A stretch of 64,000 bases of DNA from positions 9,664 through 73,663 of the forward strand of contig JBAZNZ010000003.1 of the NCBI GenBank assembly GCA_041648975.1, written 5' to 3'. The notes under the pieces were generated by a model. It was not told the origin of the DNA, searched no databases, and was given only the letters and a program-made list of their open reading frames with translations. Position numbers and translations under genes: made by a program. Position 1 is the stretch's first letter. Every line of letters begins with the position of its first letter. Positions 5,510 through 61,693 of this stretch are shown piece by piece. The DNA comes from Candidatus Omnitrophota bacterium (GTDB taxonomy: Bacteria; Omnitrophota; Gorgyraeia; 2-01-FULL-45-10).

Positions 5510-6943
5510 ATGAAAAAAATTCTTCTCATAAATCCTCCGTATTTTTACCAGATATTTTCCGGATCCATGGTCAGGGCGATGGTGAGCCCCGGCATAATGC
5601 CTCTGGGGTTGGCCTGTGTCGCAGCTTCTCTCAGGGAAATCTCCTTCAGGGTTGAGATACTGGACCTTAATCTCGTTAAAGACCCCGAAGCAACCTTGAG
5701 ATCCAAGATCAATTCATTTAAACCGGATATTGCGGGTGTTACTTTCACAACACCTTTGTCCGGTATAGCGAAAATTTTGGCCGGAATAATAAAAGACGCG
5801 GACCCGGGTATAATAACGGTCTGCGGCGGGCCCCACGTATCGATACTGCCGGAAGAGACGCTGAAAGATTCGAAGTTTGACGTAGCCGTCTTGAGAGAAG
5901 GGGATCTTTCGTTGAAAGAGATAGCCCTGGATGTTCCATTAAGCCGGATAGACGGAGTAGCCTATAAGGCGCAGGGCGGTATAATGGTAAATCAACCGAA
6001 ATCATATATAGAAAACCTTGATAAGCTTCCCTATGCCGGCGTGGACCTGTTCGATTCCGGTAAGTATACCTATCCAAGGGTTACCGCAAGGAGAAATCCC
6101 GTGGCCTCTCTCGAGACGAGCAGGGGATGTTTTTCGAGATGCTCCTACTGTAATAAATCCATTTTCGGACACAAGTTTCGGGCGAAGAGCGCGGGAAGGG
6201 TCGTCGATGAGGCTGAATTCATCCTGAAATCCGGATACAGGGAAATACACATTATAGACGACGGTTTTACGACCGACATGGAAAGGGCTTTTGCGATATG
6301 CAGCGAAGTGAAGAAGCGAGGCCTTAACTTCCCATGGTATGTACGCGGCGGCGTAAGGGTAGACAGGGTATCGAGGGATCTTCTGCGCGAGATGAAGAGC
6401 GCCGGATGTTACAGGGTGCCTTACGGGATAGAATCCGGCGATCAGTCTGTTCTTGATAATATAAGGAAAGGGATAACGCTTCAGCAGGTTGACAATGCCG
6501 TAAAATGGGCGAAAGAAGCGGGGATGATAGTAGACGGTTATTTTATGATAGGCCTCCCGGGAGAGACGGTCGCATCGGTGGAAAAGTCGATTGCCTTTGC
6601 CCGCAGCCTGGACCTGGATTACGCCAAATTCTCCATAACCGTTCCTCTCCCCGGGACGGAAATGTTTGAAAAACTGAAGAGGGACGGAAGGCTCCTGACC
6701 GAGGATTGGACCAAGTATAATTTCGCGCAGTCCCCGAGGTGCATATATAAGCATGAGAATATCAGCTGGAGCGACCTTGAGATGTACTATAACCGCGCTC
6801 ATAATAACTTCTATTTCAGGCCGGGTTATATACTAAGGCGCTTTATCGCCGGTGTGAAGAACGGCGAACTTCTCGCGTATATTAAAGCATTCTTCGATTT
6901 CGCGGGTAGTATTGTCGTAAACTTTAGGAGGACGCATGGATAG
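5510..6943 (+). CDS. Cobalamin (B12)-binding radical SAM protein (class B), copy 1
   Basis: N-terminal B12-binding-domain signature (MKKILLINPP..., CGGPHVS), radical SAM SRGCFSRCSYCNKS (CxxxCxxC). The track TTG start at 5462 was moved to ATG 5510. Confidence 0.85.
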   Translation: MKKILLINPPYFYQIFSGSMVRAMVSPGIMPLGLACVAASLREISFRVEILDLNLVKDPEATLRSKINSFKPDIAGVTFTTPLSGIAKILAGIIKDADPGIITVCGGPHVSILPEETLKDSKFDVAVLREGDLSLKEIALDVPLSRIDGVAYKAQGGIMVNQPKSYIENLDKLPYAGVDLFDSGKYTYPRVTARRNPVASLETSRGCFSRCSYCNKSIFGHKFRAKSAGRVVDEAEFILKSGYREIHIIDDGFTTDMERAFAICSEVKKRGLNFPWYVRGGVRVDRVSRDLLREMKSAGCYRVPYGIESGDQSVLDNIRKGITLQQVDNAVKWAKEAGMIVDGYFMIGLPGETVASVEKSIAFARSLDLDYAKFSITVPLPGTEMFEKLKRDGRLLTEDWTKYNFAQSPRCIYKHENISWSDLEMYYNRAHNNFYFRPGYILRRFIAGVKNGELLAYIKAFFDFAGSIVVNFRRTHG

Positions 6944-7820
6944 ATCCTTGAGCGTGATAGTTCCGGTGTTTAATGAAGAGGGCGGTATAAAGGCCGTTTT
7001 GGATTCCCTCATTTCGGAACTTGGGAATATAAAAATCCCGTATGAGATAATAGTTGTGGACGACGGTTCGGCGGACTCTACGGCCGAGATACTGAAGAGC
7101 TACAAAGACAGGGTCGGGATCATACGTCATCCGGAGAACATGGGTTACGGGCGGTCCATTAAGGACGGCATTCTCAAGGCGAAATATCCGTATATAGCAA
7201 TGCTTGACGGCGACGGTTCCTATCCCGTCGGAAGCATAGGCGATCTCTTCCGTAATATGGGCGAATATGACATGGTGGTGGGAGCGAGGACGGGAGATAA
7301 TTATAAAGGCGCGCTCTTGAAGTATCCGGCCAGGCTCGTTTTTTTATGGCTGAGCGAATTCGCGTGCGGCAGGCGCATCCCGGACGTCAATTCCGGGTTC
7401 AGGATCTTTAAGAAAGAGGTTGTGATGAAATACTTTAATACGTTATGCCTGGGGTTTTCGTTCACCACGACCATCACTCTGGCCATGTCGCTGGGAGGGT
7501 ATTTCATAAAATATATGCCGATCGAATACCACAAACGCAAGGGCGCTTCGAAGGTAAGGTATTTCAGAGATACCTTAAGGTCGCTCCAGATAATAGTGGA
7601 GACGATACTCTATTATAACCCTATAAAGATATTCATACTTTTATGCGGTTTCCTGTGGGCCGTTATGGTCATAGCAGTCGTTGCGTGCGCGTTTTTGGGA
7701 CTGGATTTTCTCACACTCCTGGCAATAGAATCATTCCTTGCGTCGTTTATAGTATTTGGTCTCGGCCTGATAGCGGATCTTATGAGAAAGATTGATCTTA
7801 AGAATTCCGATACCGAATAA
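6936..7820 (+). CDS. GT2 polyprenyl-phosphate glycosyltransferase (Dpm1/ArnC/GtrB-like) with C-terminal transmembrane helices
   Basis: SVIVPVFNEEGGI...YEIIVVDDGSADST DxD region. Two C-terminal hydrophobic helices. AGGAGGA Shine-Dalgarno at 6926-6932. Confidence 0.8.
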   Translation: MDRSLSVIVPVFNEEGGIKAVLDSLISELGNIKIPYEIIVVDDGSADSTAEILKSYKDRVGIIRHPENMGYGRSIKDGILKAKYPYIAMLDGDGSYPVGSIGDLFRNMGEYDMVVGARTGDNYKGALLKYPARLVFLWLSEFACGRRIPDVNSGFRIFKKEVVMKYFNTLCLGFSFTTTITLAMSLGGYFIKYMPIEYHKRKGASKVRYFRDTLRSLQIIVETILYYNPIKIFILLCGFLWAVMVIAVVACAFLGLDFLTLLAIESFLASFIVFGLGLIADLMRKIDLKNSDTE

Positions 7821-7836
7821 AATATAAGAGAGAGAT

Positions 7837-9591
7837 ATGTCCTGGAAAAGAGCCCTGCCTATTTTCCTCATTGGCTATATCGCGGCTAATTTAGTTTATG
7901 CTTCGCAAAAGACGGTTCTTGTAGATCCCGATGGCGCGTCGCGCGGAATGTTTGCGGTAATGGCCAAAGAGATCACACAGGATATCGCCTCGTCGAGATC
8001 TTTCTCCGCAGCCCGGATACTGCGGATAGTCAAAAAATATAATGCGCATTACCAGGTAGGCCCCGAACCGCTTTTTGTATGGACGCCGCTCCAATTATCC
8101 TACCTGTACCCATTAAGCTTTATTCCTCTTGATCACGAATTTGTCTTTGCCCTCACGAATCTTGCTTTTCTCATACTCCTGGCTGTATTCATATATAAAT
8201 TGGCTTATCTGACATTCGAGAATGAGGGATACGCGTTAATATCAAGCATATTATTTTTACTGCATCCCATTGTTTTCGATACCGCCATATCCTTGAGGCG
8301 GGGAATGGGGGAGACGGCTTTTCTTACAGCCGCAAGCTACTGTTTTGTCGTGTTTTTGAAGACCCGCAGCATAAGAGCGTTCCTCGATTCACTTATCATA
8401 GCGCTTATCGGCTTCTTTTACAGAGAAACAATGCTTCTTCCCGTCGTTGCCATTTGTGCGCTCGGAGTTTTCGTTATATCCCGCAATATACCATGGCCCG
8501 AGTATGCTAAAGGCTTTCTACGCTACCGCGGCAGGTTATCGGTGATCGCGGTATTATGCCTTATTCTTTTTTTATACCTGTCCTCTGAGATATATATGAC
8601 TAAAAAAGGCGTAGGAACCCTTTTAACGAAGGGAAAAGAATATAACAGCCAGCGCGTGAAGAATGTGGCCGTTAAAGGTCTCGTTACCATGGACGATTAT
8701 TTTAAAGTGGAGTCTGTATACGCGCCGCTTAGATTTGACAGGAACCTGTTTGAAAAGATGGAGCAGACGCAACCGGAGTTTTACTCAAAGATTCGGCTCA
8801 TAGAATCACGGTTTGGCATCCCGCACTATAAAAAATCATTTTTTATCGCAAGCACCATCTTTTATCAATGGTATCTTCTGCCTTTTTTCATTATAGGGAT
8901 CATCGCGGCCCGCAAAGCCGCTAAGATACGATATGCGTCCGGCTTTATCCTGTTCTCCGCGCTCCTTTACTTCGCGGCGCTCTCGCTGACAGGCACTATA
9001 CCCGATTTCAGCCTTCCTATGATACCCGCTGTCATGATATTTTGTACTTTAGGGATATTCGAAGTCGCCGGTAACCTGAATAAGTATTTAAAGGCCGCTT
9101 TATTTTGCGGGCTTTTTTTCATAATTACAATAAGCGGTTTATATGCGTTGCAAAATATCCAACTTCACCAAAGGATGCATGTAAGGTCTTCGCTGGTCAT
9201 AAGCGACATATTAAAAGATAACAGCGGAGGCGCTCCTTTTACATTAATGGTGGACAGCTATGTCGCTCCGGAATACGGCCTTCGCGCTGTTCAAATGGAT
9301 AAAGCAGGCGTGATGTATCTATTACCGGTTTCCGCTTTCACATTGAAGAAAGATAGATTGGCGGATTGCATGAAAAGGAAAGGGCTTAATCGGAGGTCGG
9401 GCTTTCTGGGCGATATATCCTGCCCTGGAATAGAATATATCGCGGCATTTTCCGAAAAACAATATGACTATTACAATTCGATAATATCGCCGGCAAAGAT
9501 GCCTTTCAATATAGATATGGTAATAAGCGAGCCTAGCGCCGCCACGAAAACATATATATATAAGAGGAATGATGATTACGACATTATTTAA
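7837..9591 (+). CDS. Polytopic membrane protein, putative GT-C fold glycosyltransferase (ArnT/PMT-like) with C-terminal soluble domain
   Basis: 584 aa with more than 10 predicted transmembrane segments, then an about 130 aa hydrophilic C-terminus. Sits immediately downstream of a Dpm1-like GT2, as in the ArnC/ArnT and GtrB/GtrC pairs. Confidence 0.5.
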   Translation: MSWKRALPIFLIGYIAANLVYASQKTVLVDPDGASRGMFAVMAKEITQDIASSRSFSAARILRIVKKYNAHYQVGPEPLFVWTPLQLSYLYPLSFIPLDHEFVFALTNLAFLILLAVFIYKLAYLTFENEGYALISSILFLLHPIVFDTAISLRRGMGETAFLTAASYCFVVFLKTRSIRAFLDSLIIALIGFFYRETMLLPVVAICALGVFVISRNIPWPEYAKGFLRYRGRLSVIAVLCLILFLYLSSEIYMTKKGVGTLLTKGKEYNSQRVKNVAVKGLVTMDDYFKVESVYAPLRFDRNLFEKMEQTQPEFYSKIRLIESRFGIPHYKKSFFIASTIFYQWYLLPFFIIGIIAARKAAKIRYASGFILFSALLYFAALSLTGTIPDFSLPMIPAVMIFCTLGIFEVAGNLNKYLKAALFCGLFFIITISGLYALQNIQLHQRMHVRSSLVISDILKDNSGGAPFTLMVDSYVAPEYGLRAVQMDKAGVMYLLPVSAFTLKKDRLADCMKRKGLNRRSGFLGDISCPGIEYIAAFSEKQYDYYNSIISPAKMPFNIDMVISEPSAATKTYIYKRNDDYDII

Positions 9592-9705
9592 ATCGTTTAA
9601 TATAAAATAAACACTCCCGCTTTATAATGCATCGCAATATCCCTATCTAATTGATAACAAACAAGTTATATAAATAGCTAATGGTCAGTACATTCTATTT
9701 TGATA

Positions 9706-9734
9706 TTGACATATTACTGATAAAATGCTATTAT
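9706..9734 (+). promoter_or_regulatory. Sigma70-like promoter TTGACA-N17-TATTAT
   Basis: TTGACA 9706-9711, exact 17-nt spacer, TATTAT 9729-9734. AT-rich 190-bp gap. GGAGAT Shine-Dalgarno at 9771-9776 then GTG 9782. Confidence 0.5.
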
Positions 9735-9781
9735 TCCCATTGTAATCTGACACTAATATCGCAAAAAAAAGGAGATCGAGC

Positions 9782-10888
9782 GTGAAGACACCGTTATTGG
9801 ACTTAAGGGCTCAATACAAACAGATAAAGTCAGACGTAGACAAAGCCATCCGTAAGGTTATCGACAACCAGAATTTTGTATTGGGCGAGGATGTAAAGAA
9901 GCTTGAAGTCGAAATTGCGTCATATTGCAACGTAAGATACGCTGTCGGGGTGGCTTCAGGCACGGACGCCCTGATATTATCGCTTAAGGCCCTCGGGATA
10001 AGGGAAGGAGATGAAGTCATCACGTCTCCTTTTACTTTTTTTGCGACTGCGGAGGCGGTCTCGATCGTCGGCGCGAAGCCGGTATTCGTTGATATCGATC
10101 CAAAGACTTTTAATATAGACCCGTCCCTCATCGAAAAGAAGATCAACAGAAATACAAAAGCGATAATACCGGTCCATTTATACGGCCAGTGCGCGGATAT
10201 GGACCCAATAGTAACAGTGGCTAAGAAAAATGGGCTTAAGATAATAGAGGACTGCGCCCAGGCCGTAGGGGCCAAGTATAACGGCATAAAGGCCGGCTCG
10301 ATGGGAGACGCGGGAGCTTTAAGCTTTTTCCCGAGCAAGAATCTCGGGGCCTTCGGTGACGGAGGAATGGTGATCACTAACGATGAAAAGATCGCCGAAA
10401 AGATAAAGATGCTGCGCGTCCATGGCAGCGCAGCCAGATACATCCATTCCGAAATAGGAATGAATTCCAGGCTGGATAATCTTCAGGCTGCAGTCCTAAG
10501 AGTAAAACTTAAACGTCTCGATAAATGGCTCGATATGCGGCGGCAGAAAGCTCGTTACTACAACGAACGCCTTAAGGGTTTACCTCTGACTACGCCCCAT
10601 GTTCCCTCGTATAATATACATACCTACCATCTATATGTCCTGAGGGTCAAGTCCGACCTTCAAAGACTTATGACCTTTCTGACGGATTCAGGCATTGAGA
10701 CCAGGACCTACTATCCAGTACCTCTTCATCTGCAGGAATGCTATAAGCACCTCGGGTATAAGGAAGGCGATCTTGTCCATGCCGAGTCGGCCGCGCGGCA
10801 GACATTCTCTATTGCCGTCTATCCTGAGATGAAGAGACAGGCAGCGGATCATGTGATAAATAAGATCAAGGCGTTTTTTGGAAAGTAG
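9782..10888 (+). CDS. DegT/DnrJ/EryC1/StrS-family PLP-dependent sugar aminotransferase (GTG start)
   Basis: Family-typical N-terminus VKTPLLDLRAQYKQIKSDVDKAI, plus TSPFTFFATAEAV and IIEDCAQAVGAKY. Confidence 0.85.
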   Translation: MKTPLLDLRAQYKQIKSDVDKAIRKVIDNQNFVLGEDVKKLEVEIASYCNVRYAVGVASGTDALILSLKALGIREGDEVITSPFTFFATAEAVSIVGAKPVFVDIDPKTFNIDPSLIEKKINRNTKAIIPVHLYGQCADMDPIVTVAKKNGLKIIEDCAQAVGAKYNGIKAGSMGDAGALSFFPSKNLGAFGDGGMVITNDEKIAEKIKMLRVHGSAARYIHSEIGMNSRLDNLQAAVLRVKLKRLDKWLDMRRQKARYYNERLKGLPLTTPHVPSYNIHTYHLYVLRVKSDLQRLMTFLTDSGIETRTYYPVPLHLQECYKHLGYKEGDLVHAESAARQTFSIAVYPEMKRQAADHVINKIKAFFGK

Positions 10889-10893
10889 CCGAT

Positions 10894-12765
10894 ATGTGCG
10901 GAATAGTTGGAGCCTTCAATCTAAATAACCGGCCTGTTGACCATGCCAGCATTGAAAAGATGGGCAGGGTCCTTTCTCACAGGGGGCCCGACGACGAAGG
11001 CTCGTTTTTTGACGGCAATATAGGCCTGGCACACCGTAGGCTTTCTATCATCGACCTATCCAGCGATGGCCATCAGCCTATGCATAATGAAGATAACACC
11101 TTGTGCATAGTACATAACGGCGAGATCTACAACTATCTGGAGCTCATGGCCGAGCTCAAATCCCTCGGGCATCTATTCAGGTCCCATTCGGATACGGAAG
11201 TCATAATCCACGCATATGAAGAATGGGGAGCCGGTTGTCCGGGCAAATTCAACGGGATGTGGTCGTTTGCCATATGGGACAGGGGCTGTAAGACTCTTTT
11301 CTGCAGCCGCGATAGGTTCGGGGTAAAGCCGTTCTATTATTTTATGGATAAGGACAAATTCGTCTTTGCTTCGGAGATCAAGGCCGTCCTGGAGTATGAC
11401 GGTGTCCCTAAAGCCCCCGACAATGACGCCATATACCGGTATCTCGCCAAAGGCTACGGATATATGGATACCGACGAAAATACCTTCTTCTCACGCATTA
11501 AACAGCTTAAGAGCGGTCATTGCCTGTCGGTATCAGCGGACAATTTTGAATGCAGGAGATACTGGAATATAGATTTTGAAAATAAAGACCACGCCATAGA
11601 TTTTGGACGCGCTAAAGAAAAATTTTCATTTCTGCTGGATGATTCGGTGAAATTAAGGCTGAGAAGCGATGTCCCTGTTGGCATATCCCTGAGCGGCGGG
11701 ATAGATTCGTCGTCGCTTGCTGTAGTAATGTCCGGGATGCTGGATAAGAAGATAGAGAGCTTCTCGGCATGCTTTGATATGGAAGGATTTGACGAGCGCT
11801 CCTATATCAACGAAACGCTAAAGGATAAGAAGATAGTTCCAAACTTTGTCTTTCCTGAAGCGAAATCGCTTATGAGTGAATTCGAGAAGATGGTATGGCA
11901 TCAGGACGAACCGTACAGCGGGGCCAGCGTTTATTCGCAGTGGCGGGTTATGGAAGAGGCTCATAAAAAAGGGATAAAGGTGCTCTTGACCGGCCAGGGA
12001 GGGGACGAGACCCTGGGAGGTTACTACAAATATTATCCTTATTACCTGGCTGACCTGTTCGCGTCGTTCAGATGGCCGTATTTTTCCATGGAGCTGAAGA
12101 CCCTAAGCTCGGTTGCCGGCTATTCACTATCGAGCGCTTTTTTCTCAACGATGAAAGTGATGGGTTCCAAGTGGTGCCCCGCATGGATCAAGGAAGGTAT
12201 AAACGGGGGTTTTGATCGCCGTCCGTTATTCCTCGACAGGGATTTCCCGGGCGCAGATCCGGTCAATAAGAAAGACCGCAGACGGGCCGGTTTCGGATCC
12301 TTCACAGACACGGAATTGTATAATTCTCTGGTAGTGTCGCCGCTCCCGTCACTCCTGCACATAGACGACAGGAACAGCATGGCCCATTCGGTAGAATCAC
12401 GCACGCCGTTCCTGGATTACAGGCTTGTAGAATTTCTCTTTTCGCTGCCGTACGACATGAAGATATCCAATGGCTATACGAAATACATATTGCGCGAGAC
12501 GTTAAAGGGCCGCTTGCCGGAGAGCATAAGGACTCGGCGCGACAAGATGGGTTTCGTCACGCCTACCGGCGTCTGGTTCAGGCGCGAGCTTAAAGACGAT
12601 ATATTGGAGATATTCAATTCCTCCGATTTCAAAAAGAGAGGAATATTCGATAAGAAAGGCGTGGACGAAGCGCTCTACGCGCATTTTTCCGGAAAGAGGG
12701 ACTTGTCATTTACTATATGGAGTTGGATTAACCTGGAGCTTTGGTTCAGGCGATTTTTTAACTAA
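10894..12765 (+). CDS. Asparagine synthase (glutamine-hydrolysing)-family amidotransferase (AsnB/WbpS/PseA-like)
   Basis: MCGIVGAF Ntn Cys2 start, class-II GATase domain, PP-loop SLSGGIDSS, 623 aa. Confidence 0.85.
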   Translation: MCGIVGAFNLNNRPVDHASIEKMGRVLSHRGPDDEGSFFDGNIGLAHRRLSIIDLSSDGHQPMHNEDNTLCIVHNGEIYNYLELMAELKSLGHLFRSHSDTEVIIHAYEEWGAGCPGKFNGMWSFAIWDRGCKTLFCSRDRFGVKPFYYFMDKDKFVFASEIKAVLEYDGVPKAPDNDAIYRYLAKGYGYMDTDENTFFSRIKQLKSGHCLSVSADNFECRRYWNIDFENKDHAIDFGRAKEKFSFLLDDSVKLRLRSDVPVGISLSGGIDSSSLAVVMSGMLDKKIESFSACFDMEGFDERSYINETLKDKKIVPNFVFPEAKSLMSEFEKMVWHQDEPYSGASVYSQWRVMEEAHKKGIKVLLTGQGGDETLGGYYKYYPYYLADLFASFRWPYFSMELKTLSSVAGYSLSSAFFSTMKVMGSKWCPAWIKEGINGGFDRRPLFLDRDFPGADPVNKKDRRRAGFGSFTDTELYNSLVVSPLPSLLHIDDRNSMAHSVESRTPFLDYRLVEFLFSLPYDMKISNGYTKYILRETLKGRLPESIRTRRDKMGFVTPTGVWFRRELKDDILEIFNSSDFKKRGIFDKKGVDEALYAHFSGKRDLSFTIWSWINLELWFRRFFN

Positions 12766-12774: not shown

Positions 12775-13851
12775 ATGAATAGCATGAAAGACGTTCTAAA
12801 TGTATTCCGCGCAAATTATTCTTTCCGTCAAAAGATGAACTATCTGAAATACCGTTTTTCCGCGAAAGAGGAGACCCTGGGCTACGAACCGATAGTGATT
12901 TCTGTCGTAGCTACGGGACGCTGCACCCTTTCCTGCGACATGTGCCCTACGCACTCGAAGAAAATGCCTAAAGACTACCCGCATATTCAGAGTCCTTCGA
13001 AAGATATTTCATTCGAGGATTTTAAGCGAGCGGTGGACGCGCTCCCCAGGGCTTTACATGTCCATATAATAGGCTCCGGCGAGCCGCTTTTGAACAGGGA
13101 CTTTTTCAGGATAGCCGAATATGCGGCCGTTAAAAAGCGCATGAAGGTAAAGACATTCTCAAACGGCACTACGATAGAGAAGAACATCGATAACATTATC
13201 AACTCGCCGCTTGACGGTATTACCATAAGCCTCAACGGCCATTCTCCAGAGGAATTCAGCCGAATGACGGGATGCCCCAAAGAGACATATTCCAGGATAT
13301 ATGACGCTACGGCCAGGCTAATAAAGGCGCGCGATAGTTCAGGCTCGAAGGTCAAGGTCAAGCTCTCATTCATAATAGACAGGGTAAATTATGTGAATAT
13401 GCCGTTGATGATAGAAACAGGCGAGCGCCTCGGCGCGGATTCGATATTTTTCTGTAACTTTCTTCCGGCCCCTTACAAGGGGTTTACTGCGGACGAGCGC
13501 ATGATATTTACCTATGATTTGAGAGAAATCGATTTTATGAGGGGCGTCTATTCGCGGCTGGATCCGGTCATGAAAAAAAAGATCAGTCTTCCCGACGCGA
13601 TCGATCCTGGCAGGACCAAGAACGGCTGTAATACATATTTTACGCAGATACGCATTGACGGTGAAGGAAGGGCGTCGAGCTGCTCTATAATGCTCTTGAA
13701 TATGAAAGGTAGCGGCCGCGTATGGGATTACGGCGTGTGGAACAACGCGTTCTTCAGAAATATGCGGAAGACCTTCCTCTCGGACAGCGCCGGGCTGCTC
13801 CCCGAGCCATGCCGCGTATGCCCTGAAAATAAAGGCGTTATTTTAAGGTAA
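12775..13851 (+). CDS. Radical SAM protein with C-terminal Cys-rich SPASM/twitch-like domain
   Basis: GRCTLSCDMCPTH (CxxxCxxC). C-terminal cysteines (CNTYF, SSCS, CRVCPE). Confidence 0.75.
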   Translation: MNSMKDVLNVFRANYSFRQKMNYLKYRFSAKEETLGYEPIVISVVATGRCTLSCDMCPTHSKKMPKDYPHIQSPSKDISFEDFKRAVDALPRALHVHIIGSGEPLLNRDFFRIAEYAAVKKRMKVKTFSNGTTIEKNIDNIINSPLDGITISLNGHSPEEFSRMTGCPKETYSRIYDATARLIKARDSSGSKVKVKLSFIIDRVNYVNMPLMIETGERLGADSIFFCNFLPAPYKGFTADERMIFTYDLREIDFMRGVYSRLDPVMKKKISLPDAIDPGRTKNGCNTYFTQIRIDGEGRASSCSIMLLNMKGSGRVWDYGVWNNAFFRNMRKTFLSDSAGLLPEPCRVCPENKGVILR

Positions 13852-25681: not shown

Positions 25682-25693
25682 CGGAAGACGGCA

Positions 25694-27401: not shown

Positions 27402-27403
27402 AC

Positions 27404-39306: not shown

Positions 39307-39314
39307 GGGGCAAA

Positions 39315-39938: not shown

Positions 39939-39949
39939 GGAAATATGTC

Positions 39950-43664: not shown

Positions 43665-43665
43665 T

Positions 43666-47130: not shown

Positions 47131-47147
47131 GAGAAGGCGGGTGCGAT

Positions 47148-52060: not shown

Positions 52061-52062
52061 GC

Positions 52063-54110: not shown

Positions 54111-55492
54111 AGTTGCTATTCGTGATGTATGACAATGAAGGGCCGAAAAACAGTATGCCGGTCGGGCCGTGCTACGTGGCGGCCTATGCCAAGGAGAACG
54201 GATACGGCGATATAGCCTACTACAGCCAGGATGTTTATCATTATCCGGAAGAGCATCTTACGAAGTATCTTGATGACAACCGTTTCGATGTGGTGGGCAT
54301 CGGTTTTTGCGCCGGCTATTTCCAGCTGAAAAAGATCAAGATGATATGCGACGCCATCCACAAGTCGAAACACAGACCCTTTATAGTGTTGGGCGGTCAT
54401 GGGCCGAGCCCCGTGCCGGAGTTTTACATTAAATACATGGGCGCGGATGCCACTGTTTCGGGCGACGGAGAGCTGCCGTTCCTGAATCTTGTGAAGGCGC
54501 TTGAGAACAAGACTCCTCTTAGCAAGGTAAAAGGGATATCCTACCGGGACGGCGATAAGGTGGTCGTGAACGAACGGGAAGCGGCCATAAAAGACCTGGA
54601 TAGTCTGCCGTTCCCTCTTTACGAACTCCTGCCTATGGAATATTATCTTGCCGCCAAACTGGCGGGCCAGAGCGCTACAGACCGCATGATATATCTTACG
54701 CCAAGCAGGGGATGTACGTATAATTGCAATTTCTGCCAGCGGCTTGAGCCCGGGATCCGCCTCAGGTCTCCCGGCAACATAGTAGAGGAGATAAAAAAAT
54801 ACAAGAAGGACTACAACGCGACGTTTATACATTTTGTAGATGAGCTGTTCATGTTAAGCAAGAAACGTATCTATGACCTTACGGAGGCATTTCTGAAGGC
54901 GGACCTTAATATAAAATATTTCTGCACGGGGCGCCTCAACATCGCCGATGAGGAGATACTCGGCATGATGAAACGCTCGGGTTGCGCATATATAGACTAC
55001 GGCATAGAACAGTTCGATAACGCTGCTCTCGCTGCCATGGATAAGCAGCAGACCGAGGATGATATAATCCGCGGCATAACGGCGACACAGAAGGCCGGCA
55101 TCAACATCGTATTTAATATAATATTCGGCAATATCGGGGATACGAAAAAAAGCCTTCGTAAGTCGATAGAACTGCTGAAGAAATACAATGATTACGGCCA
55201 GGTCAGGGCGATCAGGCCGGTAACGCCGTATCCGGGCTCGCCTCTTTATTATTATGCCATAGATAAGGGGCTTCTTAAGGGGCCGGAGGATTTTTACAGG
55301 AAGCATACGAATCTTGAGCTTCCGACGGTGAACTTCACCAGCATACCGGACAAAGAGTTCATAGACCTGATGTTCGAGGCTAATAAGGAAATACTTCACG
55401 ACCACTACGACCATGTAAGAGATGAGACCATTGAAACTTTCCGGAAGGTCTATTATGAGAAGGACGCGAGTTTCAGGGGGACGAGGCATTAG
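54107..55492 (+). CDS. B12-binding radical SAM protein, copy 7
   Basis: MKLLFVMYDN, SRGCTYNCNFCQRL. Confidence 0.85.
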   Translation: MKLLFVMYDNEGPKNSMPVGPCYVAAYAKENGYGDIAYYSQDVYHYPEEHLTKYLDDNRFDVVGIGFCAGYFQLKKIKMICDAIHKSKHRPFIVLGGHGPSPVPEFYIKYMGADATVSGDGELPFLNLVKALENKTPLSKVKGISYRDGDKVVVNEREAAIKDLDSLPFPLYELLPMEYYLAAKLAGQSATDRMIYLTPSRGCTYNCNFCQRLEPGIRLRSPGNIVEEIKKYKKDYNATFIHFVDELFMLSKKRIYDLTEAFLKADLNIKYFCTGRLNIADEEILGMMKRSGCAYIDYGIEQFDNAALAAMDKQQTEDDIIRGITATQKAGINIVFNIIFGNIGDTKKSLRKSIELLKKYNDYGQVRAIRPVTPYPGSPLYYYAIDKGLLKGPEDFYRKHTNLELPTVNFTSIPDKEFIDLMFEANKEILHDHYDHVRDETIETFRKVYYEKDASFRGTRH

Positions 55493-55495: not shown

Positions 55496-56545
55496 ATGAA
55501 GAATAAGGCCGCGGAAAAGGAATGGAAGCAGCTACGGTATACCAGGGACCCGGACGAGATGATCGCCGGTGTAGTGGGTAAAGAGTATATGGAATACCGC
55601 AAGCGCTGGGAGCGCGCCGGCCGGTTGCAGGTGACCGGCAAATATCCGACGCATCTCGATTTCGAATTCCGGTACGGGTGTAACTTGAAATGCCCCTATT
55701 GCATACTCCAGATAGGGTCCTCGGAATTGGGCGAAAACCACCCTTATCACATCAGGAATAAGTCGCTCAGCATCACGTTCGAGAAGTTCGAGGAGATACT
55801 CAAAGAGGGTATATCGCATGGGCTTTCGTCCATTACGATAGGCGGCAATAATGAACCCCTGCTGACGCGAGATGTCGCCAGATACATAAAACGCGCCAGG
55901 GAACTGGGCATAGTAGATGTAATTATGCTTACCAACGCTACATTGCTTACGGAGAAGATCTCCGCAGAGCTGCTGGATTCCGGAATAACCAAGATATATT
56001 TCTCCCTGGACGCCATACGGCAAGAGACATACAGGATAGTGCGCAAGGGCGGCGATTTCGGTAAGGTCATGAAGAATATAGAATATTTCCTGAAACTGAA
56101 GAAAGAGAAAGGGCAGGTCCTGCCGATAACCAGGGTCTCTTTCGTAAAGAATAAGCTGAACGAGGCCGAAGCGGAAGAGTTTGCCGAGTACTGGAAAACA
56201 AAGGTCGATTTCCTTTGCTTCCAGGCGTTCGTGACGCCGGCCTACGGGTATTCGGGCTATGAGACGCTCCGGAAAAAGTTCCAGATGGAGAACAAGGAGC
56301 TGAAAGAACCGGGCGTCTGCAGCCAGCCTTACCAGCGCCTGACTATTTACAGCGACGGGTCCGTGCATCCCTGCTGCCGGTGGTACGGATCGACCATAAT
56401 CCTGGGAAATATTAATTCAGAGAGTATCTATGATATATGGAATTCCGCAAAGATGAAAAAATTCAGGCTTGCGGTAAATGACAGCGTTCCGGATAATGTG
56501 CCCAAGGAATGCCGGATATGCAGGAAGACTATCTTTGGTGAATAG
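55496..56545 (+). CDS. Radical SAM protein with C-terminal SPASM-like domain, second copy
   Basis: YGCNLKCPYCILQ. C-terminal CSQPY...HPCCRWYG...CRICRK. Confidence 0.75.
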   Translation: MKNKAAEKEWKQLRYTRDPDEMIAGVVGKEYMEYRKRWERAGRLQVTGKYPTHLDFEFRYGCNLKCPYCILQIGSSELGENHPYHIRNKSLSITFEKFEEILKEGISHGLSSITIGGNNEPLLTRDVARYIKRARELGIVDVIMLTNATLLTEKISAELLDSGITKIYFSLDAIRQETYRIVRKGGDFGKVMKNIEYFLKLKKEKGQVLPITRVSFVKNKLNEAEAEEFAEYWKTKVDFLCFQAFVTPAYGYSGYETLRKKFQMENKELKEPGVCSQPYQRLTIYSDGSVHPCCRWYGSTIILGNINSESIYDIWNSAKMKKFRLAVNDSVPDNVPKECRICRKTIFGE

Positions 56546-56548: not shown

Positions 56549-58033
56549 ATGGCCACAGCGGAACATAAGATAAAAAATATATTGTTCTACCTTATACCTT
56601 CTTTCATAGGCAACGCGCTGCCTTTTATCACGCTTCCTATAATAACGCGTTTCCTGTCGCCGCAGGATTTCGGCATATCGGCTCTTGCTATGAGCACGAC
56701 GCTGATCATAGCGAATATCCTGGTATGCAATGTCGATACGGCGGCGTACCGGTACTATTTTGAATACAGGAAGAACGCGAAAGAAGTGGCGGGATTGATA
56801 AATACGAGCCTGGCGTATATTTTACTGGTCGGCGTCGTCTCCATTCCGATCGTCTATTTTGCCAGTAACGCTATTTCGAGGCTTATTATAGGTTCTGCGG
56901 AATATGCGCAGGCTTTATTCATTTCGTACATAAGCGCCTGCCTTTCCGTGCTGGTAAATTTTTATCTGATGTTCTACCGGAATATGGAAAAGGCCAAAGA
57001 TTTCTCTTATTTAAAGACAATCCAAACGCTTATAGGCACGATACTTACTCTGGTATTGATCATAAAATTCAGAATGGGTTATATGGGGCTCATATACGCG
57101 ACGTTCGGATCGTTTCTTATCGCGTTCCTGGTAGTTTCCGCGCGGTTCATGATAGATTTTCCTTTTCATTTCAGGGCTAAGATGCTTATCGATAACCTGA
57201 AATACGGGATACCGCTTTTGCCTAATATGTTCAGCGGCTCCATATACCAGTTCTTTGATAAATACATGCTGCAGAGGATCGTCTCGCTGTCGAGCACAGG
57301 CATATTCAGTATAGCGCAGAACATATCTACGAGGCTCTTCACGTTCATGACCGCGGTCCAATCGACGTTCGAGCCGATATTCATGAAAGACATGTTCGAC
57401 CGCGGCGCCGAAGGGGCGAGATCGGTCGGAAGGAATTTCACGGTATTTACATACATATCGCTGTCCGTCATCCTCGGCACTATATTGTTCGGGGAGGAGA
57501 TAATCTATATCCTGGCCCCGAGCAGCTATTATGGGGCTATAAATGTTTTCATGATCCTCCTGGGCGCTATATCAATGCAGACATTCGGCAAGATCGTCGG
57601 GCCGCAGCTGGCATATCCTAAAAAAGCCTATCTGTCGTTCCCCATAAGCCTTGCGGGGCTGGCAGTCAACATATCGCTGAACCTGTTCCTTATACCGAAG
57701 TGGGGGGCGTCCGGCGCCGCGTTCGCTACATTCGTTACCATCGCTTTGAGTAATGCCATATCGGTCTTCATAGCGCAAAAATTCTACAAAATAGAGTATG
57801 AGAAATTTTTCCTGCTGCTTATATATTCGAATGTTTTTATCAGCACATTCCTGCTGATATATATGAGGCTGATTGACGCCCCGATCCTGCTTAAGTATGG
57901 GTTGAAGATAGCGTCGTTGGCCGCTTACGCTTATGCCGGAGTAAGGGCCCGGATAATTACAAAAGGCAACATCAGGATCGTTATGAACATATTAAGATTA
58001 AGAACCTCTACTGAAAAATATGTAGAGATATAG
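56549..58033 (+). CDS. Wzx-type flippase (MOP superfamily), second copy
   Basis: PFITLPIITRFLSPQDFG N-terminal signature. About 14 transmembrane helices. Confidence 0.7.
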   Translation: MATAEHKIKNILFYLIPSFIGNALPFITLPIITRFLSPQDFGISALAMSTTLIIANILVCNVDTAAYRYYFEYRKNAKEVAGLINTSLAYILLVGVVSIPIVYFASNAISRLIIGSAEYAQALFISYISACLSVLVNFYLMFYRNMEKAKDFSYLKTIQTLIGTILTLVLIIKFRMGYMGLIYATFGSFLIAFLVVSARFMIDFPFHFRAKMLIDNLKYGIPLLPNMFSGSIYQFFDKYMLQRIVSLSSTGIFSIAQNISTRLFTFMTAVQSTFEPIFMKDMFDRGAEGARSVGRNFTVFTYISLSVILGTILFGEEIIYILAPSSYYGAINVFMILLGAISMQTFGKIVGPQLAYPKKAYLSFPISLAGLAVNISLNLFLIPKWGASGAAFATFVTIALSNAISVFIAQKFYKIEYEKFFLLLIYSNVFISTFLLIYMRLIDAPILLKYGLKIASLAAYAYAGVRARIITKGNIRIVMNILRLRTSTEKYVEI

Positions 58034-58045
58034 AAAGGACCGATC

Positions 58046-58816
58046 ATGATAGACCTGAAAGCCAGGTTAAAAGCCAATAAGCTTACTATAGGATCCTGGA
58101 TCACGCTTGCGTCCCCGGCCATACCGGAGATCATGGCCCGGTGCGGGTTCGACTGGCTCACAGTCGATATGGAACATTCGGCTATAACCATCGAAATTGC
58201 CCAGGACCTTATACGGATCATCGGGCTGTCAGGCGTCGTGCCTCTAGTGCGCGTCGGCAAGAACGACCCTAATCTAATAAAGAGGGTCATGGATGCCGGT
58301 GCGCACGGCGTGATCGTGCCTATGGTGAATTCGCCGGAAGATGCCGAGAGGGCGGTCAGCGCCGTCAAATATCCGCCTGTCGGGAAGAGGGGCGTCGGCC
58401 TTGCGCGGGCGCAGGGGTACGGCCTTGAATTCGGGAAGTATAAAAACTGGGTCAATAAAAAAAGCGTAGTTGTCGTCCAGGTAGAGCATATAGACGCGGT
58501 CGAAAGCCTAGAAGGCATACTCGCGACCCCGGGGGTGGATGCTTTTATTGTGGGACCGTATGACCTGTCGGCTTCGCTGGGAAGACCTGGGGAATTCGAA
58601 CATCCCGACGTCAAGGCGGCGCTTAAAGAGGTGATTTCTGTATCGAAACGGATGAATAAATGCGCCGGGTTTCACGTCATCCCGCCGGACAGCCGGCTGC
58701 TTGCTAAAAAATCCGAAGAAGGCTATAGGTTCTTAGGGTTCAGCCTCGATACGCTCTTTTTGGGCCGGTCATGCATGGATGAAACAACCGCCGCGCGCAG
58801 GAAGATGAGGAGATAA
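58046..58816 (+). CDS. HpcH/HpaI-family class II (pyruvate-specific) aldolase
   Basis: GSWITLASP, DWLTVDMEHS, GVIVPMVNS, VGKRGVG. AGAAAGGA Shine-Dalgarno. Confidence 0.8.
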   Translation: MIDLKARLKANKLTIGSWITLASPAIPEIMARCGFDWLTVDMEHSAITIEIAQDLIRIIGLSGVVPLVRVGKNDPNLIKRVMDAGAHGVIVPMVNSPEDAERAVSAVKYPPVGKRGVGLARAQGYGLEFGKYKNWVNKKSVVVVQVEHIDAVESLEGILATPGVDAFIVGPYDLSASLGRPGEFEHPDVKAALKEVISVSKRMNKCAGFHVIPPDSRLLAKKSEEGYRFLGFSLDTLFLGRSCMDETTAARRKMRR

Positions 58817-58819
58817 GAG

Positions 58820-59611
58820 ATGAATATCGCAGCTATAATACCCGCCAGGATGGCGTCGACAAGATACCCCGGAAAGCCCCTTGCCAGGATACTCGGCATG
58901 GAGATGATAGGCCATGTCTATTTCCGCAGCCGCATGTCCAAGCTCCTTAACGGTATATATATAGCCACATGCGATAGCGAGGTGAGTGATTACGCGAAAT
59001 CGATAGGCGCGCCGTACATCATGACAAAGGATACTCATGAGAGGGCGTCCGATCGCGCGGCGGAGGCTATGCTTAAGATCGAGGCGGATACCGGAAAGAA
59101 GCTGGACATAGTCGTGATGATACAGGGCGACGAGCCGATGATTGCGCCGGAAATGATAGACGAGGCCGTGAGGCCGCTTGTCGAAGACAGCTCGATACTC
59201 GTGTCGAACTCCATGGCCGATATCATGACCAGGCAGGAGCAGGAGGACCCGAACGAGGTGAAGGTCGTTGTCGATAATGACGGCTTTGCGTTATACTTTT
59301 CGCGCGAGCCGATACCGTCATGGAAGAAAGGCGCGAAGGCCGTGCCGATGCGCAAACAGGTATGTATAATACCTTTCAGGAGGGATTTTCTTTTGAAGTT
59401 CAACGGGCTTAAGCAGACGCCGCTCGAGATCGTCGAGTCGGTCGACATGCTGAGGGTCCTCGAAAACGGATATAAGGTAAAGATGGTCCCGACGAAATAT
59501 GTGACGTACAGCGTCGATACGCCGGAGGATCTAAGGACCGTCGAAGAGGCCATGAAGGGCGATAAGCTCCTGGCCGGGTATTTCCGGGCCGCAAAGGCAG
59601 GGAGGGGGTAG
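58820..59611 (+). CDS. KdsB-family cytidylyltransferase (CMP-3-deoxy-ulosonate synthetase)
   Basis: AAIIPARMASTRYPGKPL (KdsB IIPARxxSTRxPGKPL signature), VVMIQGDEP. Confidence 0.8.
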   Translation: MNIAAIIPARMASTRYPGKPLARILGMEMIGHVYFRSRMSKLLNGIYIATCDSEVSDYAKSIGAPYIMTKDTHERASDRAAEAMLKIEADTGKKLDIVVMIQGDEPMIAPEMIDEAVRPLVEDSSILVSNSMADIMTRQEQEDPNEVKVVVDNDGFALYFSREPIPSWKKGAKAVPMRKQVCIIPFRRDFLLKFNGLKQTPLEIVESVDMLRVLENGYKVKMVPTKYVTYSVDTPEDLRTVEEAMKGDKLLAGYFRAAKAGRG

Positions 59612-59615
59612 CCGT

Positions 59616-60056
59616 ATGGAAAAGGTCTCCGCGCTGAAAATAGAGGACTTTAAGGAAGGCAAGAGCTATTCGTTCGAAAAGACCGTGACGGCCGCGGACA
59701 TCGACGTCTTTGCCGCTATAACGGGCGATATCAGTCCTCTGCATATGAGCGATGAGTTTGCCCGGGCTAGAGGGTTCAAAGGCAGGGTCGCGCACGGCGT
59801 GCTCCTCGCGGGATTTGTGTCGAAGATTATAGGCGTGGACTTTCCCGGCGAGAACTGCCTCCTACAGACCATGAGCCTGAAATTTTCCACGCCATGTTAC
59901 GCCGGAGACACATTGCGTATCACCGCGTCCGTCAGCCAGGTTTCAACCGCCGCAGGCGCAGTGGTCCTTGATATAGTGATAGAAAATGCGGCAGACCGCG
60001 TAACTGTGGCAAAAGGGAAAGCGCAGGTAGGTTTTACGAAGACGACAGGAAAATAA
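59616..60056 (+). CDS. MaoC-like (R)-specific enoyl-CoA/ACP hydratase, hot-dog fold
   Basis: ITGDISPLHMSDEFA, RVAHGVL. Confidence 0.8.
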   Translation: MEKVSALKIEDFKEGKSYSFEKTVTAADIDVFAAITGDISPLHMSDEFARARGFKGRVAHGVLLAGFVSKIIGVDFPGENCLLQTMSLKFSTPCYAGDTLRITASVSQVSTAAGAVVLDIVIENAADRVTVAKGKAQVGFTKTTGK

Positions 60057-61693
60057 TGAAGGATATAGAGTTCATTTTTATAGCGCAGTCGGAGACGATC
60101 GATTACGGAGGGTATTCAAAGCTGCCCGCCGACAGGATCGAACTTTACAGGGATCTCGTCTATCCGCGCATGGTGTATTTTAAGGGAGCCTTCCGTTCGC
60201 ATCTCGACCTGATAAATTATTTTACGGAAGGAAAATTCTTTAACGAGGCAGGATACGCTGAGCGCCGTAAGCTTCTTAACATGTGGAACCTGCCCGGCAT
60301 GAACAGCCTCCATCTTGCGAACTACCTCGCGCAATACGGCATTGCGGCTAAGGTTATAAATAATTTCGACGCGGAATGGGATATATTCCGCGACGCGTAC
60401 GGATCCGCGAAACGCCCTCCGATCGTCGGCATTTCGACTACGTTCCATCTTTCTTATATGGAGGCTAAGCGTATCGCAGGAGAGATAAGGAAGGAATATC
60501 CGGACGCTGTCATAGCGCTGGGCGGCGCATTCGTGAACGAGCAGTCCATAAACGGGGAACTCAGGGACATGGAAAAGCCTATGCGCAAATACGGCATAAA
60601 TTACATACTCCATGCGTTCAATTCCGAGGCCGATCTGAGGGACCTTGTCCTGGCCTCAAGAAAAGGCGCGCTGCCGGGCAGCGTTAACAACCTCGCCTAT
60701 CTCGGCGGCGGCGATCTCAAGTCCTGCGCATTCGGGACGACGGGGACGAAATGGAACGACCCTGTCCTGGAGGATGATCCCGAGTTATGGGATAAGCTGG
60801 ATATGAAGTTCGTGAACCATACCGTCCAGACGAGGACTTCGTACGGCTGCCCGTTCTCCTGCGCGTTCTGCTCATATCCGAAGACGGCGAAAAAATTCTG
60901 CCAGATGGACATCGATGCTGTCGAAAAACAGGTAAATGGGCTTCTGAAGATTCCGGGCGTCGATAAGATAATATTCGTCGACGATACATTTAACGCGTCT
61001 CCTGCCCGTTTTAAGGACATATGCCGCAGTCTCGGCAAATATAATTTTGAATGGTTCGCCTTCCTGCGGGCCAACCTTATAGATGAGGAAACGGCAAGGC
61101 TGATGGTCAGGTCCGGATGCAGGGGCGTCTATCTCGGTATAGAATCGGCCGATGACGCTGTGCTGAAGAATATGAACAAGAAGGCCACGCACTCTCAATG
61201 TCTCGAGGGCATAAGGTTTCTGAAGAAATACGGCGTAACTACCGTGGCCGCGTTTATAATAGGTTTTCCGGGCGAGACGGAAGAGACCCTTAAGGAAGAT
61301 GTAGAGTTCATAGAGTCGAGCGGGGTCGATTTTTACACCCTGAAGGAGTTTTATTACATGAAGCATACGGCCGTATACGAGGATCGCGGCCGGTTCGGCC
61401 TGTCGGGCATTGGGAACAAGTGGCGGCACGATACGATGGATTACAAAAAGGCGCAAGCTGCGAAGATAGATATGTTCAGGTCAATCAAAAACAGCGTATA
61501 TGTCGATGCGGATACGAGCCTGTGGTATATAGCTTACCTTTATGACCAGGGATACGATATAAGCCGGACAGCGGCGGCACAGCGCCGTATAAACGGCATC
61601 GCGGCCCGGCAGATAGACGGTATGACGGATGATAACGACAGGCTCTTTAAAGAGCTAGGCGAAATATTATCGAAAGAGGCGGTGCGCAAATGA
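60056..61693 (+). CDS. B12-binding radical SAM protein, copy 8
   Basis: TSYGCPFSCAFCSYP. TAATG overlap with the upstream gene. Confidence 0.85.
   Translation: MKDIEFIFIAQSETIDYGGYSKLPADRIELYRDLVYPRMVYFKGAFRSHLDLINYFTEGKFFNEAGYAERRKLLNMWNLPGMNSLHLANYLAQYGIAAKVINNFDAEWDIFRDAYGSAKRPPIVGISTTFHLSYMEAKRIAGEIRKEYPDAVIALGGAFVNEQSINGELRDMEKPMRKYGINYILHAFNSEADLRDLVLASRKGALPGSVNNLAYLGGGDLKSCAFGTTGTKWNDPVLEDDPELWDKLDMKFVNHTVQTRTSYGCPFSCAFCSYPKTAKKFCQMDIDAVEKQVNGLLKIPGVDKIIFVDDTFNASPARFKDICRSLGKYNFEWFAFLRANLIDEETARLMVRSGCRGVYLGIESADDAVLKNMNKKATHSQCLEGIRFLKKYGVTTVAAFIIGFPGETEETLKEDVEFIESSGVDFYTLKEFYYMKHTAVYEDRGRFGLSGIGNKWRHDTMDYKKAQAAKIDMFRSIKNSVYVDADTSLWYIAYLYDQGYDISRTAAAQRRINGIAARQIDGMTDDNDRLFKELGEILSKEAVRK

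Follow-up and report, generated by a model that had tools for sequence, protein, structure and literature searches.

Cobalamin-dependent (class B) radical S-adenosylmethionine (SAM) enzymes form a large and mostly uncharacterized group, and the sugar substrates known for them belong to antibiotics and to one hopanoid head group. According to reviews, most of the characterized members are methylases: GenK, GenD1 and Fms7 C-methylate aminoglycoside sugars, and MoeK5 carries out a C-methylation in moenomycin biosynthesis. Other reactions have also been described. HpnJ contracts the ring of a lipid-linked glucosamine installed by HpnI, a family 2 glycosyltransferase (GT2), on the way to the hopanoid cyclitol ether; calditol synthase, a radical SAM enzyme, converts a lipid-linked hexose to a five-membered ring; BchE is an oxidative cyclase; MgmA methylates a protein glutamine; and AprD4, covered by a review of cobalamin-dependent radical SAM enzymes, is a cobalamin-independent 1,2-diol dehydratase of an aminoglycoside sugar. 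Here we analyze a 64-kb stretch of DNA (the window) from a metagenome-assembled genome (MAG) of Candidatus Omnitrophota, in which eight radical SAM enzymes with a B12-binding-like region (r1 to r8) and two further radical SAM enzymes (s1 and s2) are interleaved with glycan biosynthesis genes.

The antibiotic enzymes MoeK5, GenK, GenD1 and Fms7 share the B12-binding plus radical SAM architecture of r1-r7 and target a sugar carbon, but they belong to actinomycete secondary metabolism and occur one or two per cluster, whereas the window holds eight such genes in a Wzx-type surface-glycan locus. HpnJ offers a second parallel, since it acts after a GT2 on lipid-linked glucosamine and GT2 genes adjoin radical SAM genes in the window. 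Its partners differ, those in the window being GT-C transferases and flippases, and Pfam and NCBIfam scans of the window returned no squalene-hopene cyclase, HpnH, HpnI, HpnG or HpnK.

With about 50% G+C, the window contains about 56 genes. Essentially all of them are read from the + strand, many overlap their neighbors by a few bases, and the surface-glycan cluster extends beyond its 64 kb. An earlier note on this DNA had described the radical SAM genes as interleaved with glycan genes on one strand, and the Pfam gene map confirms this arrangement: three GT2, three GT4/GT1, two clear GT-C (PMT_2) glycosyltransferases and two Wzx-type flippases are accompanied by two class I methyltransferases, four DegT aminotransferases, two NeuB synthases, three CMP-sugar cytidylyltransferases, AsnB, UDP-glucose dehydrogenase and epimerases. 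We consider it likely that the window represents most of a surface-glycan biosynthesis super-locus with radical SAM tailoring in three parts: an assembly block (5.5-33.5 kb) in which r1-r6 and s1 would tailor sugar intermediates, a region with two NeuB gene sets in which r7 and s2 are probable tailoring enzymes of a nonulosonic acid, and a Dlt-like acylation cassette that includes r8. It is probable, by our estimate, that r1-r8 belong to the glycan pathway and act on sugar intermediates or on substituents of sugars. We regard their tie to this pathway as strong because one is fused to a glycosyltransferase, with split forms elsewhere, and because synteny is conserved across phyla. Candidates for the glycan itself are an O-antigen, a capsule and a protein-linked glycan.

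Ten radical SAM enzymes and their nearest relatives

The radical SAM enzymes of the window are as follows.

5510-6943, + strand: r1, B12-binding radical SAM enzyme, open reading frame (ORF) from 5462 (Pfam, NCBIfam)
12775-13851, + strand: s1, radical SAM enzyme with a twitch/SPASM-like C-terminal cysteine pattern (Pfam, cysteine spacing)
13860-15398, + strand: r2, B12-binding radical SAM enzyme (Pfam, NCBIfam)
20486-23191, + strand: r3, 901-residue fusion of a B12-binding radical SAM enzyme and a GT4 glycosyltransferase (Pfam, AlphaFold2 model, Foldseek)
24260-25681, + strand: r4, B12-binding radical SAM enzyme, ORF from 24254 (Pfam, NCBIfam)
29191-30654, + strand: r5, B12-binding radical SAM enzyme (Pfam, NCBIfam)
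31418-32830, + strand: r6, B12-binding radical SAM enzyme (Pfam, NCBIfam)
54107-55492, + strand: r7, B12-binding radical SAM enzyme (Pfam, NCBIfam)
55496-56545, + strand: s2, radical SAM/SPASM enzyme (Pfam, NCBIfam)
60056-61693, + strand: r8, PhpK-like radical SAM enzyme (Pfam, NCBIfam)

All eight of r1-r8 match Radical_SAM (PF04055) at 69-103 bits (Pfam cut-off 29.5), with exactly one CxxxCxxC per ORF and a B12-binding region (PF02310) N-terminal to the radical SAM domain. The earlier note had read both domains in all eight. Its reading stands in full for the radical SAM domain and motif and for seven of the eight B12-binding domains, which score 34-80 bits against a cut-off of 32.1; r8 reaches only 22.3 bits. 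Cobalamin use by r1-r7 is predicted from this domain, which by itself is no proof, since AprD4 has a similar domain and works without cobalamin. The start of r1 was placed correctly at 5510, where the protein reads MKKILLINPP, and its homologs are about 467 amino acids long. Pairwise identity among r1-r8 is 25-33%, the strong divergence noted previously, and they appear from their sequences to be old paralogs. The claim of SPASM-like C-termini in both s1 and s2 was borne out for s2, in which Radical_SAM is followed by SPASM (PF13186, 58.5 bits, cut-off 21.5). For s1 only Radical_SAM was matched and SPASM was not found at E<0.01; its cysteines 285, 303, 346 and 349 are spaced like those of s2 (275, 293/294, 339 and 342), and the label is plausible on this cysteine pattern.

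We assigned families to the ten enzymes with NCBIfam models and their curated cut-offs, and sought structural relatives by PDB sequence searches and Foldseek. HpnJ (TIGR03471, cut-off 577.6 bits) is the best named match of r1 (223 bits), r5 (221) and r4 (120), and r5 next matches BchE (160 bits) and, in a full-length alignment, AprD4 (139 bits). The best named match of r6 is BchE (TIGR02026, 242 bits vs a cut-off of 481), r3 scores 178 bits with ApyD (cut-off 750), and r8 aligns full-length with the PhpK/Sden_1168 P-methyltransferase family (TIGR04479) at 377 bits (cut-off 600). Membership of the HpnJ, BchE, PhpK, HpnR, ladderane-lipid, MgmA, AprD4 and ribosomally synthesized and post-translationally modified peptide (RiPP) families was considered and rejected, all scores falling far below the curated cut-offs; the earlier note had named affiliation with a family of known non-glycan function as the outcome that would count against it, and none was found. 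No bacteriochlorophyll genes were found in the window scans either. A published sequence similarity network places HpnJ, the best named match of r1, r4 and r5, in one cluster with the C-methylases MoeK5 and Fom3, so HpnJ as best match cannot tell methylation from rearrangement.

The solved structures closest to r1, r3 and r6, by sequence and by fold, are MgmA/QCMT (9CCB) and then AprD4 (6FD2), followed by TokK, TsrM, OxsB and CysS. Both differ from the reaction proposed here, MgmA in its protein glutamine substrate and AprD4 in being a cobalamin-independent aminoglycoside-sugar dehydratase. Weak PDB relatives of s2 are MoaA, BlsE and BtrN, and the PDB sequence search with s1 returned no relative.

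Fusions, modules and related loci

The r3 protein combines a B12-binding radical SAM enzyme (approximately residues 1-485) with a GT4-type glycosyltransferase of the GT-B fold (approximately residues 495-900). In Foldseek searches with an AlphaFold2 model (pLDDT 86.5), the N-terminal half matched TsrM, MgmA, AprD4 and TokK, and also OxsB and CysS, with about 18-22% sequence identity in the alignments to MgmA and AprD4, and the C-terminal half matched the retaining GT4 enzymes MshA, BshA and PglA, and also HepE, at target TM-scores of 0.75-0.82. At least 50 full-length fused homologs share 45-60% identity with r3, split versions of about 500 amino acids also exist, and the two halves are adjacent separate ORFs in three loci (L004, L005 and L009); because of this recurrence in both forms, we regard the fusion as genuine. 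The glycosyltransferase half is likewise seen as a free-standing family (about 400 amino acids), and there are several other fused clusters.

Homologs of the radical SAM half of r3 are found fused to a class I SAM methyltransferase in proteins of about 750-1,000 amino acids (P0067, P0082, P0084 and P0097), and other fusions join two B12-binding radical SAM enzymes, or two such enzymes with a SPASM enzyme between them. These combinations echo adjacencies in the window, namely r4 and r5 with their methyltransferases (24260-26665 and 29191-31421), s1 with r2, and r7 with s2. BLAST comparison of the methyltransferase domains of the fusions with the two methyltransferases of the window gave no match above the 45-bit filter, so the r4 and r5 pairs are only a loose parallel.

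Giant proteins of 1,000-2,330 amino acids with two to six B12-binding radical SAM-like stretches were also seen (P0400, P0411, P0425, P0091 and P0092), one of them with the order B12-binding radical SAM, SPASM radical SAM, B12-binding radical SAM. A 2026 preprint reports giant proteins of Omnitrophota that include 'sugar metabolism/radical SAM' modules, and the proteins seen here may be related to those.

Two sub-modules of the assembly block have a common composition. One is r1/GT2/GT-C (5510-9591), the other GT2/GT-C/r5 with a methyltransferase (26646-31421), and in each the radical SAM enzyme has HpnJ as its best named match. Their GT2 enzymes, GT2a and GT2c, have top matches to the polyprenyl-phosphate-sugar synthases AglJ, Dol-P-hexose transferase, PpgS, PgfS and ArnC, none of which reaches its cut-off. 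By hydropathy, GT2a carries transmembrane segments at its C-terminus. The arrangement resembles three-component polyprenyl-phosphate-sugar glycosylation (GtrA/B/C, ArnC/ArnT and PgfS-type systems), in that a small GT2 with transmembrane segments adjoins a GT-C (PMT_2) transferase. It differs in having an adjacent B12-binding radical SAM enzyme, and sometimes a methyltransferase, and in GT2 scores that stay below the curated cut-offs. Relatives of r1, about 467 amino acids long, fall into more than 120 clusters at 45-70% identity from Omnitrophota, Elusimicrobiota and one Woesearchaeota MAG. In three independent contexts, an Endomicrobiales MAG, a groundwater metagenome contig and an unclassified JGI metagenome contig, a small GT2 adjoins the r1 relative in three of three and a PMT_2 GT-C in two of three, with class I methyltransferases and more B12-binding radical SAM genes nearby. 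An r1-like gene is also present on the 27-kb plasmids of Lawsonia intracellularis.

A further parallel comes from moenomycin. The sugar methylated there is a lipid-linked uronamide, formed with the help of an AsnB-type amidotransferase; by pathway description, this resembles the UDP-sugar dehydrogenase, AsnB, s1, r2 and GT4 of the window.

Clusters of this kind recur elsewhere, as a comparison of neighborhoods in related MAGs revealed. In MAG GCA_041643025.1 (contig JBGGHK010000010.1, loci L026/L027) seven B12-binding radical SAM enzymes and one further radical SAM enzyme lie within 34 kb. The order of its core is that of the window: AsnB, r2 (68% identity), s1 (51%), GT4, Wzx, GT2, r3 (58%) and GT1 (55%), with r1 (48%) and the transglutaminase-like protein (44%) further along and variable modules between them. 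Surface-polysaccharide loci typically combine a conserved core with a variable set of other genes, and the pattern fits the hypervariable polysaccharide cassettes recently reported from complete Omnitrophota genomes. Absent from the window but present in the related locus are a GT2-methyltransferase fusion (585 amino acids), a UbiA-family prenyltransferase, a row of three PMT_2-like genes and a FemAB-like gene.

Outside the Omnitrophota, plasmid pDCAR1 of Solidesulfovibrio carbinolicus DSM 3852 (50989-88329, locus L029) has at least four 'radical SAM protein' genes in a glycan locus with asnB, glycosyltransferases, a NeuB-family synthase, pseF and heptose-type genes, interrupted by insertion sequence elements. 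Judging from these loci, glycan clusters with several radical SAM genes are a recurrent, lineage-wide trait of Omnitrophota that is also found in Elusimicrobiota, and similar clusters occur in several uncultured anaerobic phyla. They are not peculiar to the window, nor is its locus uniquely exceptional; the earlier note had inferred an exceptionally hyper-modified glycan from the number of such enzymes. Because the same clustering recurs in related MAGs and one radical SAM enzyme is fused to a glycosyltransferase, the association of these enzymes with glycan genes is not due to chance.

In the second part of the locus, genes at 35314-42510 comprise a NeuB-type synthase, a CMP-transferase, DegT, a PglD-type N-acetyltransferase and a hydrolyzing 2-epimerase, by gene content a complete set predicted to make a nonulosonic acid of the legionaminic/pseudaminic type. 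The region 47127-52782 holds the second NeuB along with a second cytidylyltransferase, and r7 and s2 follow. An HpcH/HpaI-type aldolase gene (58046-58816) stands directly upstream of the third CMP-sugar-type cytidylyltransferase gene (58820-59611), and the pair may supply a 2-keto-3-deoxy acid sugar by way of an aldolase, apart from the two NeuB synthases.

The eighth enzyme stands apart. The earlier note had counted it among sugar-tailoring enzymes embedded between glycosyltransferases, but r8 is part of a separate, widely conserved acylation cassette with the order MaoC, radical SAM, FkbH, carrier of about 84 amino acids, MBOAT and an uncharacterized protein of about 340-350 amino acids. This order was seen in Omnitrophota and Candidatus Abyssobacteria, and a partial version (radical SAM, MBOAT and carrier) adjoins a giant polyketide synthase in a Thalassobaculum MAG; the loci compared were the window, L022, L023, L024 and L025. 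Contigs identical to the window (L022 and L023) have the MBOAT gene after that for the 83-residue carrier, and the FkbH domain (61690-63573) scores 312 bits against a cut-off of 147. Conservation of the r8 family is high, with 50-64% identity in Desulfobulbus, Elusimicrobia, Bacteroidota, Rhodospirillales and Candidatus Abyssobacteria. Although r8 aligns with the PhpK family over its full length, its score is below the cut-off and its conserved gene context consists of MaoC, FkbH, a carrier protein and MBOAT, not phosphonate genes; because Pfam scans of the window contain no phosphoenolpyruvate mutase, r8 is not a usual phosphonate P-methylase. The DSL-motif carrier, the MBOAT and the following uncharacterized protein recall Dlt D-alanylation and other carrier/MBOAT systems, with the difference that FkbH (glyceryl-loading) replaces a DltA-type ligase and that MaoC and a radical SAM enzyme are added. 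Literature searches for the combination of FkbH, MBOAT and radical SAM found no paper.

Proposed pathway and competing explanations

We infer the following sequence of events from gene content and arrangement. In the assembly block, the HpnJ-like enzymes of the two GT2/GT-C modules would modify a polyprenyl-phosphate-linked monosaccharide at the cytoplasmic face of the membrane, and the modified sugar would then be flipped and transferred by the GT-C enzyme, while r3 would couple a radical step to GT4 glycosyl transfer within a single polypeptide. In the acylation cassette, FkbH would load a glycerate-derived unit onto the carrier, MaoC and r8 would modify the carrier-bound acyl group, and MBOAT would deliver it to an extracytoplasmic glycan or polymer.

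Several results weigh against this proposal. None of the ten radical SAM enzymes reaches the curated cut-off of any named NCBIfam family, so no reaction can be transferred by homology, and the sequence matches of r1, r3 and r6 to their nearest solved structures amount to only 79-94 bits. That cobalamin-free AprD4 is among those relatives counts in the same direction. The GT4/GT1 match at the C-terminus of r3 (26.7 bits) is just under the Pfam cut-offs (28.5/27), and the PMT_2 match of the putative GT-C at 7837-9591 is below its own. An Rfam scan of the window found no cobalamin riboswitch (nor any other family), and gene scans of the window identified no initiating phosphoglycosyltransferase, Wzy or export gene; a search for upstream sequence by way of the UDP-glucose dehydrogenase gene yielded only a contig of 1.4 kb.

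As to the chemistry, our tentative preference, held at somewhat short of an even chance, is that most of r1-r7 perform methylcobalamin-dependent C-methylation of unactivated sugar carbons by analogy with MoeK5 and GenK. The earlier note had given heavily C-methylated or branched sugars as an example of the outcome; that the enzymes are C-methylases with such products is not established, the nearest named relatives including the non-methylating HpnJ, BchE and AprD4. Those same relatives are the basis of the strongest competing explanation, that the enzymes tailor the glycan chiefly by non-methylating radical chemistry such as ring contraction to a cyclitol, 1,2-diol dehydration or deoxygenation, oxidation or epimerization, some of them perhaps cobalamin-free. 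It draws on the HpnJ matches of r1, r4 and r5, the BchE match of r6, the full-length alignment of r5 to AprD4 and the rank of AprD4 as second closest solved structure of r1, r3 and r6; HpnJ moreover works right after a GT2 on a lipid-linked sugar, mirroring the GT2-radical SAM adjacency, and calditol synthase is a precedent for radical SAM ring formation from a lipid-linked hexose. However, seven of the eight enzymes pass the B12-binding cut-off, HpnJ itself clusters with C-methylases, the closest solved structure is the C-methylase MgmA/QCMT, and methylases dominate the characterized class B enzymes. We therefore judge predominantly non-methylating chemistry rather unlikely for the set as a whole, and HpnJ-like ring rearrangement to be the next most likely reaction after C-methylation.

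Under another explanation the substrate is a lipid, such as the polyprenyl carrier, a glycolipid anchor or a membrane-spanning lipid, and the genes would lie in the glycan locus because its end product is a glycolipid. All of r1-r8 do match a 'lipid biosynthesis B12-binding/radical SAM protein' model (81-118 bits), with matches to HpnR as well, Omnitrophota have been reported in the literature to carry homologs of the lipid-modifying radical SAM enzymes Hbs/Mss, and related locus L026 includes the UbiA prenyltransferase. Those scores are superfamily-level, far under cut-offs of 360 and 650, Pfam scans of the window contain no lipid-synthesis genes, and the fusion partner of r3 is a GT4 and the conserved neighbors are GT2, GT-C, DegT and AsnB, all of which makes this explanation improbable. 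Least credible, to a degree that we would be surprised to see it upheld, is a coincidental location of enzymes serving an unrelated pathway such as RiPP or cofactor maturation. Moderate matches to the RiPP models ApyD and rSAM_ocin_1 and a weak MbnB/TglH-like TIM-barrel match at 45596-46363 would favor it, but no family cut-off is reached, Pfam scans of ORFs of at least 150 amino acids (short ORFs were not screened for precursors) show no RiPP-typical precursor-peptide, protease or transporter genes, and the fused and split glycosyltransferase forms and cross-phylum synteny point instead to a glycan.

Returning to glycan tailoring by r1-r8, the parts of the locus all come from known superfamilies, and it is their integration that is uncharacterized: eight radical SAM enzymes, a radical SAM-glycosyltransferase fusion, GT2/GT-C/radical SAM modules and an FkbH/MBOAT/radical SAM cassette. 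Full-text literature searches, with many subscription journals outside their coverage, found nothing relevant on B12-binding radical SAM enzymes in glycan loci of Omnitrophota or in loci for polysaccharides, O-antigens or capsules, and reviews of cobalamin-dependent radical SAM enzymes do not mention polysaccharides or glycans, in agreement with the earlier note that no such polysaccharide pathway is characterized. Proteins identical to those of the window are deposited (GCA_028715235.1 and run SRR8542065) as 'MAG: radical SAM protein [Candidatus Omnitrophica/Omnitrophota bacterium]', and the annotation of the identical public genes is generic only. With a probability that we place barely under an even chance, Omnitrophota and other anaerobic, mostly uncultured lineages possess an undescribed layer of 'radical glycan tailoring', in which diverged class B enzymes, including a bifunctional radical SAM-glycosyltransferase, form C-C or rearranged bonds on polyprenyl-linked sugars, nonulosonic acids and carrier-bound acyl groups. 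If so, sugars unseen in bacterial polysaccharides would be expected, for example multiply C-methylated, branched or carbocyclic ones.

The locus points to uncharacterized radical chemistry on sugars, and suggests that a sizeable share of the uncharacterized class B members in anaerobic candidate phyla serve cell-surface glycan synthesis. Surface glycans are relevant to the biology of Omnitrophota, which have small cells and are thought to be host-dependent. The fused and split radical SAM-glycosyltransferases and the recurring GT2/GT-C/radical SAM modules are testable units for new sugar chemistry, and Solidesulfovibrio carbinolicus, which is cultured and carries a comparable plasmid locus, could be an experimental model.

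Other genes and minor observations

The remaining genes of the window are listed below; no tRNAs were found.

131-823, + strand: RmlD-like reductase, Pfam match from profile position 62 of 287, the N-terminus being apparently short or upstream
926-2230, + strand: UDP-glucose/GDP-mannose dehydrogenase (Pfam)
2227-3174 and 4558-5502, + strand: two NAD epimerase/dehydratases (Pfam)
3177-3719 and 3476-4258, + strand: overlapping membrane ORFs in different frames (transmembrane-like segments by hydropathy count)
6936-7820, + strand: GT2a, GT2 with C-terminal transmembrane segments, polyprenyl-phosphate-sugar-synthase-like (Pfam, NCBIfam, hydropathy)
7837-9591, + strand: GT-C/PMT_2-like membrane transferase (weak PMT_2 match)
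9782-10888, + strand: DegT aminotransferase (Pfam)
10894-12765, + strand: AsnB-type glutamine amidotransferase (Pfam)
15402-16742, + strand: GT4 (Pfam)
16739-18043, + strand: GT1 (Pfam)
18056-19543, + strand: first Wzx-type flippase (Pfam)
19530-20495, + strand: GT2 (Pfam)
23188-24267, + strand: GT1-family glycosyltransferase, kept downstream of r3 in related loci (Pfam, synteny)
25694-26665, + strand: class I SAM methyltransferase (Pfam)
26646-27401, + strand: GT2c, polyprenyl-phosphate-sugar-synthase-like GT2 (Pfam, NCBIfam)
27380-29218, + strand: GT-C/PMT_2 membrane transferase (Pfam)
30585-31421, + strand: class I SAM methyltransferase (Pfam), 256 amino acids (window 30651-31421) in an identical Logan contig
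32834-33565, + strand: transglutaminase-like protein, weak match, closing the assembly block in related loci too
33636-34133, + strand: small helix-turn-helix (MarR/TrmB-like) regulator (Pfam)
34143-42510, + strand: nonulosonic-acid set 1, with iron-containing alcohol dehydrogenase, DegT, CMP-sugar cytidylyltransferase, NeuB with SAF domain, UDP-GlcNAc 2-epimerase, PglD-type acetyltransferase, CBS plus dehydratase/epimerase, and DegT (Pfam)
42450-54110, + strand: nonulosonic-acid set 2 and accessories (Pfam, NCBIfam), in order an unknown protein, PFTS-motif polysaccharide protein (43666-45633), TIM-barrel protein, short-chain dehydrogenase/reductase, NeuB (47127-47999), GNAT, aldo-keto reductase, GFO/IDH/MocA oxidoreductase, an unknown protein, cytidylyltransferase and DegT
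56549-58033, + strand: second Wzx-type flippase (Pfam/NCBIfam)
58046-58816, + strand: HpcH/HpaI-type aldolase (Pfam/NCBIfam)
58820-59611, + strand: third cytidylyltransferase (Pfam/NCBIfam)
59616-60056, + strand: MaoC dehydratase (Pfam)
61690-63573, + strand: FkbH-domain protein (Pfam/NCBIfam)
63582-63833, + strand: carrier protein of 83 amino acids with DSL motif (motif)
to 64000, + strand: start of the MBOAT gene, which continues past the window end

The two membrane ORFs upstream of r1 overlap by 244 bases, the second has a GTG start and is followed by a 300-bp gap, and its C-terminal end corresponds to the N-terminal part of a PMT_2-like domain. A frameshift or truncation in a GT-C gene could explain the pair, as could a miscalled start. 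Homologs of the second ORF (3476-4258) lie directly upstream of the r3 fusion in three related loci (L007, L012 and L013). The helix-turn-helix regulator lies exactly between the assembly block and the nonulosonic-acid block, and a 66% identical homolog of it adjoins the r3 homolog in locus L007.

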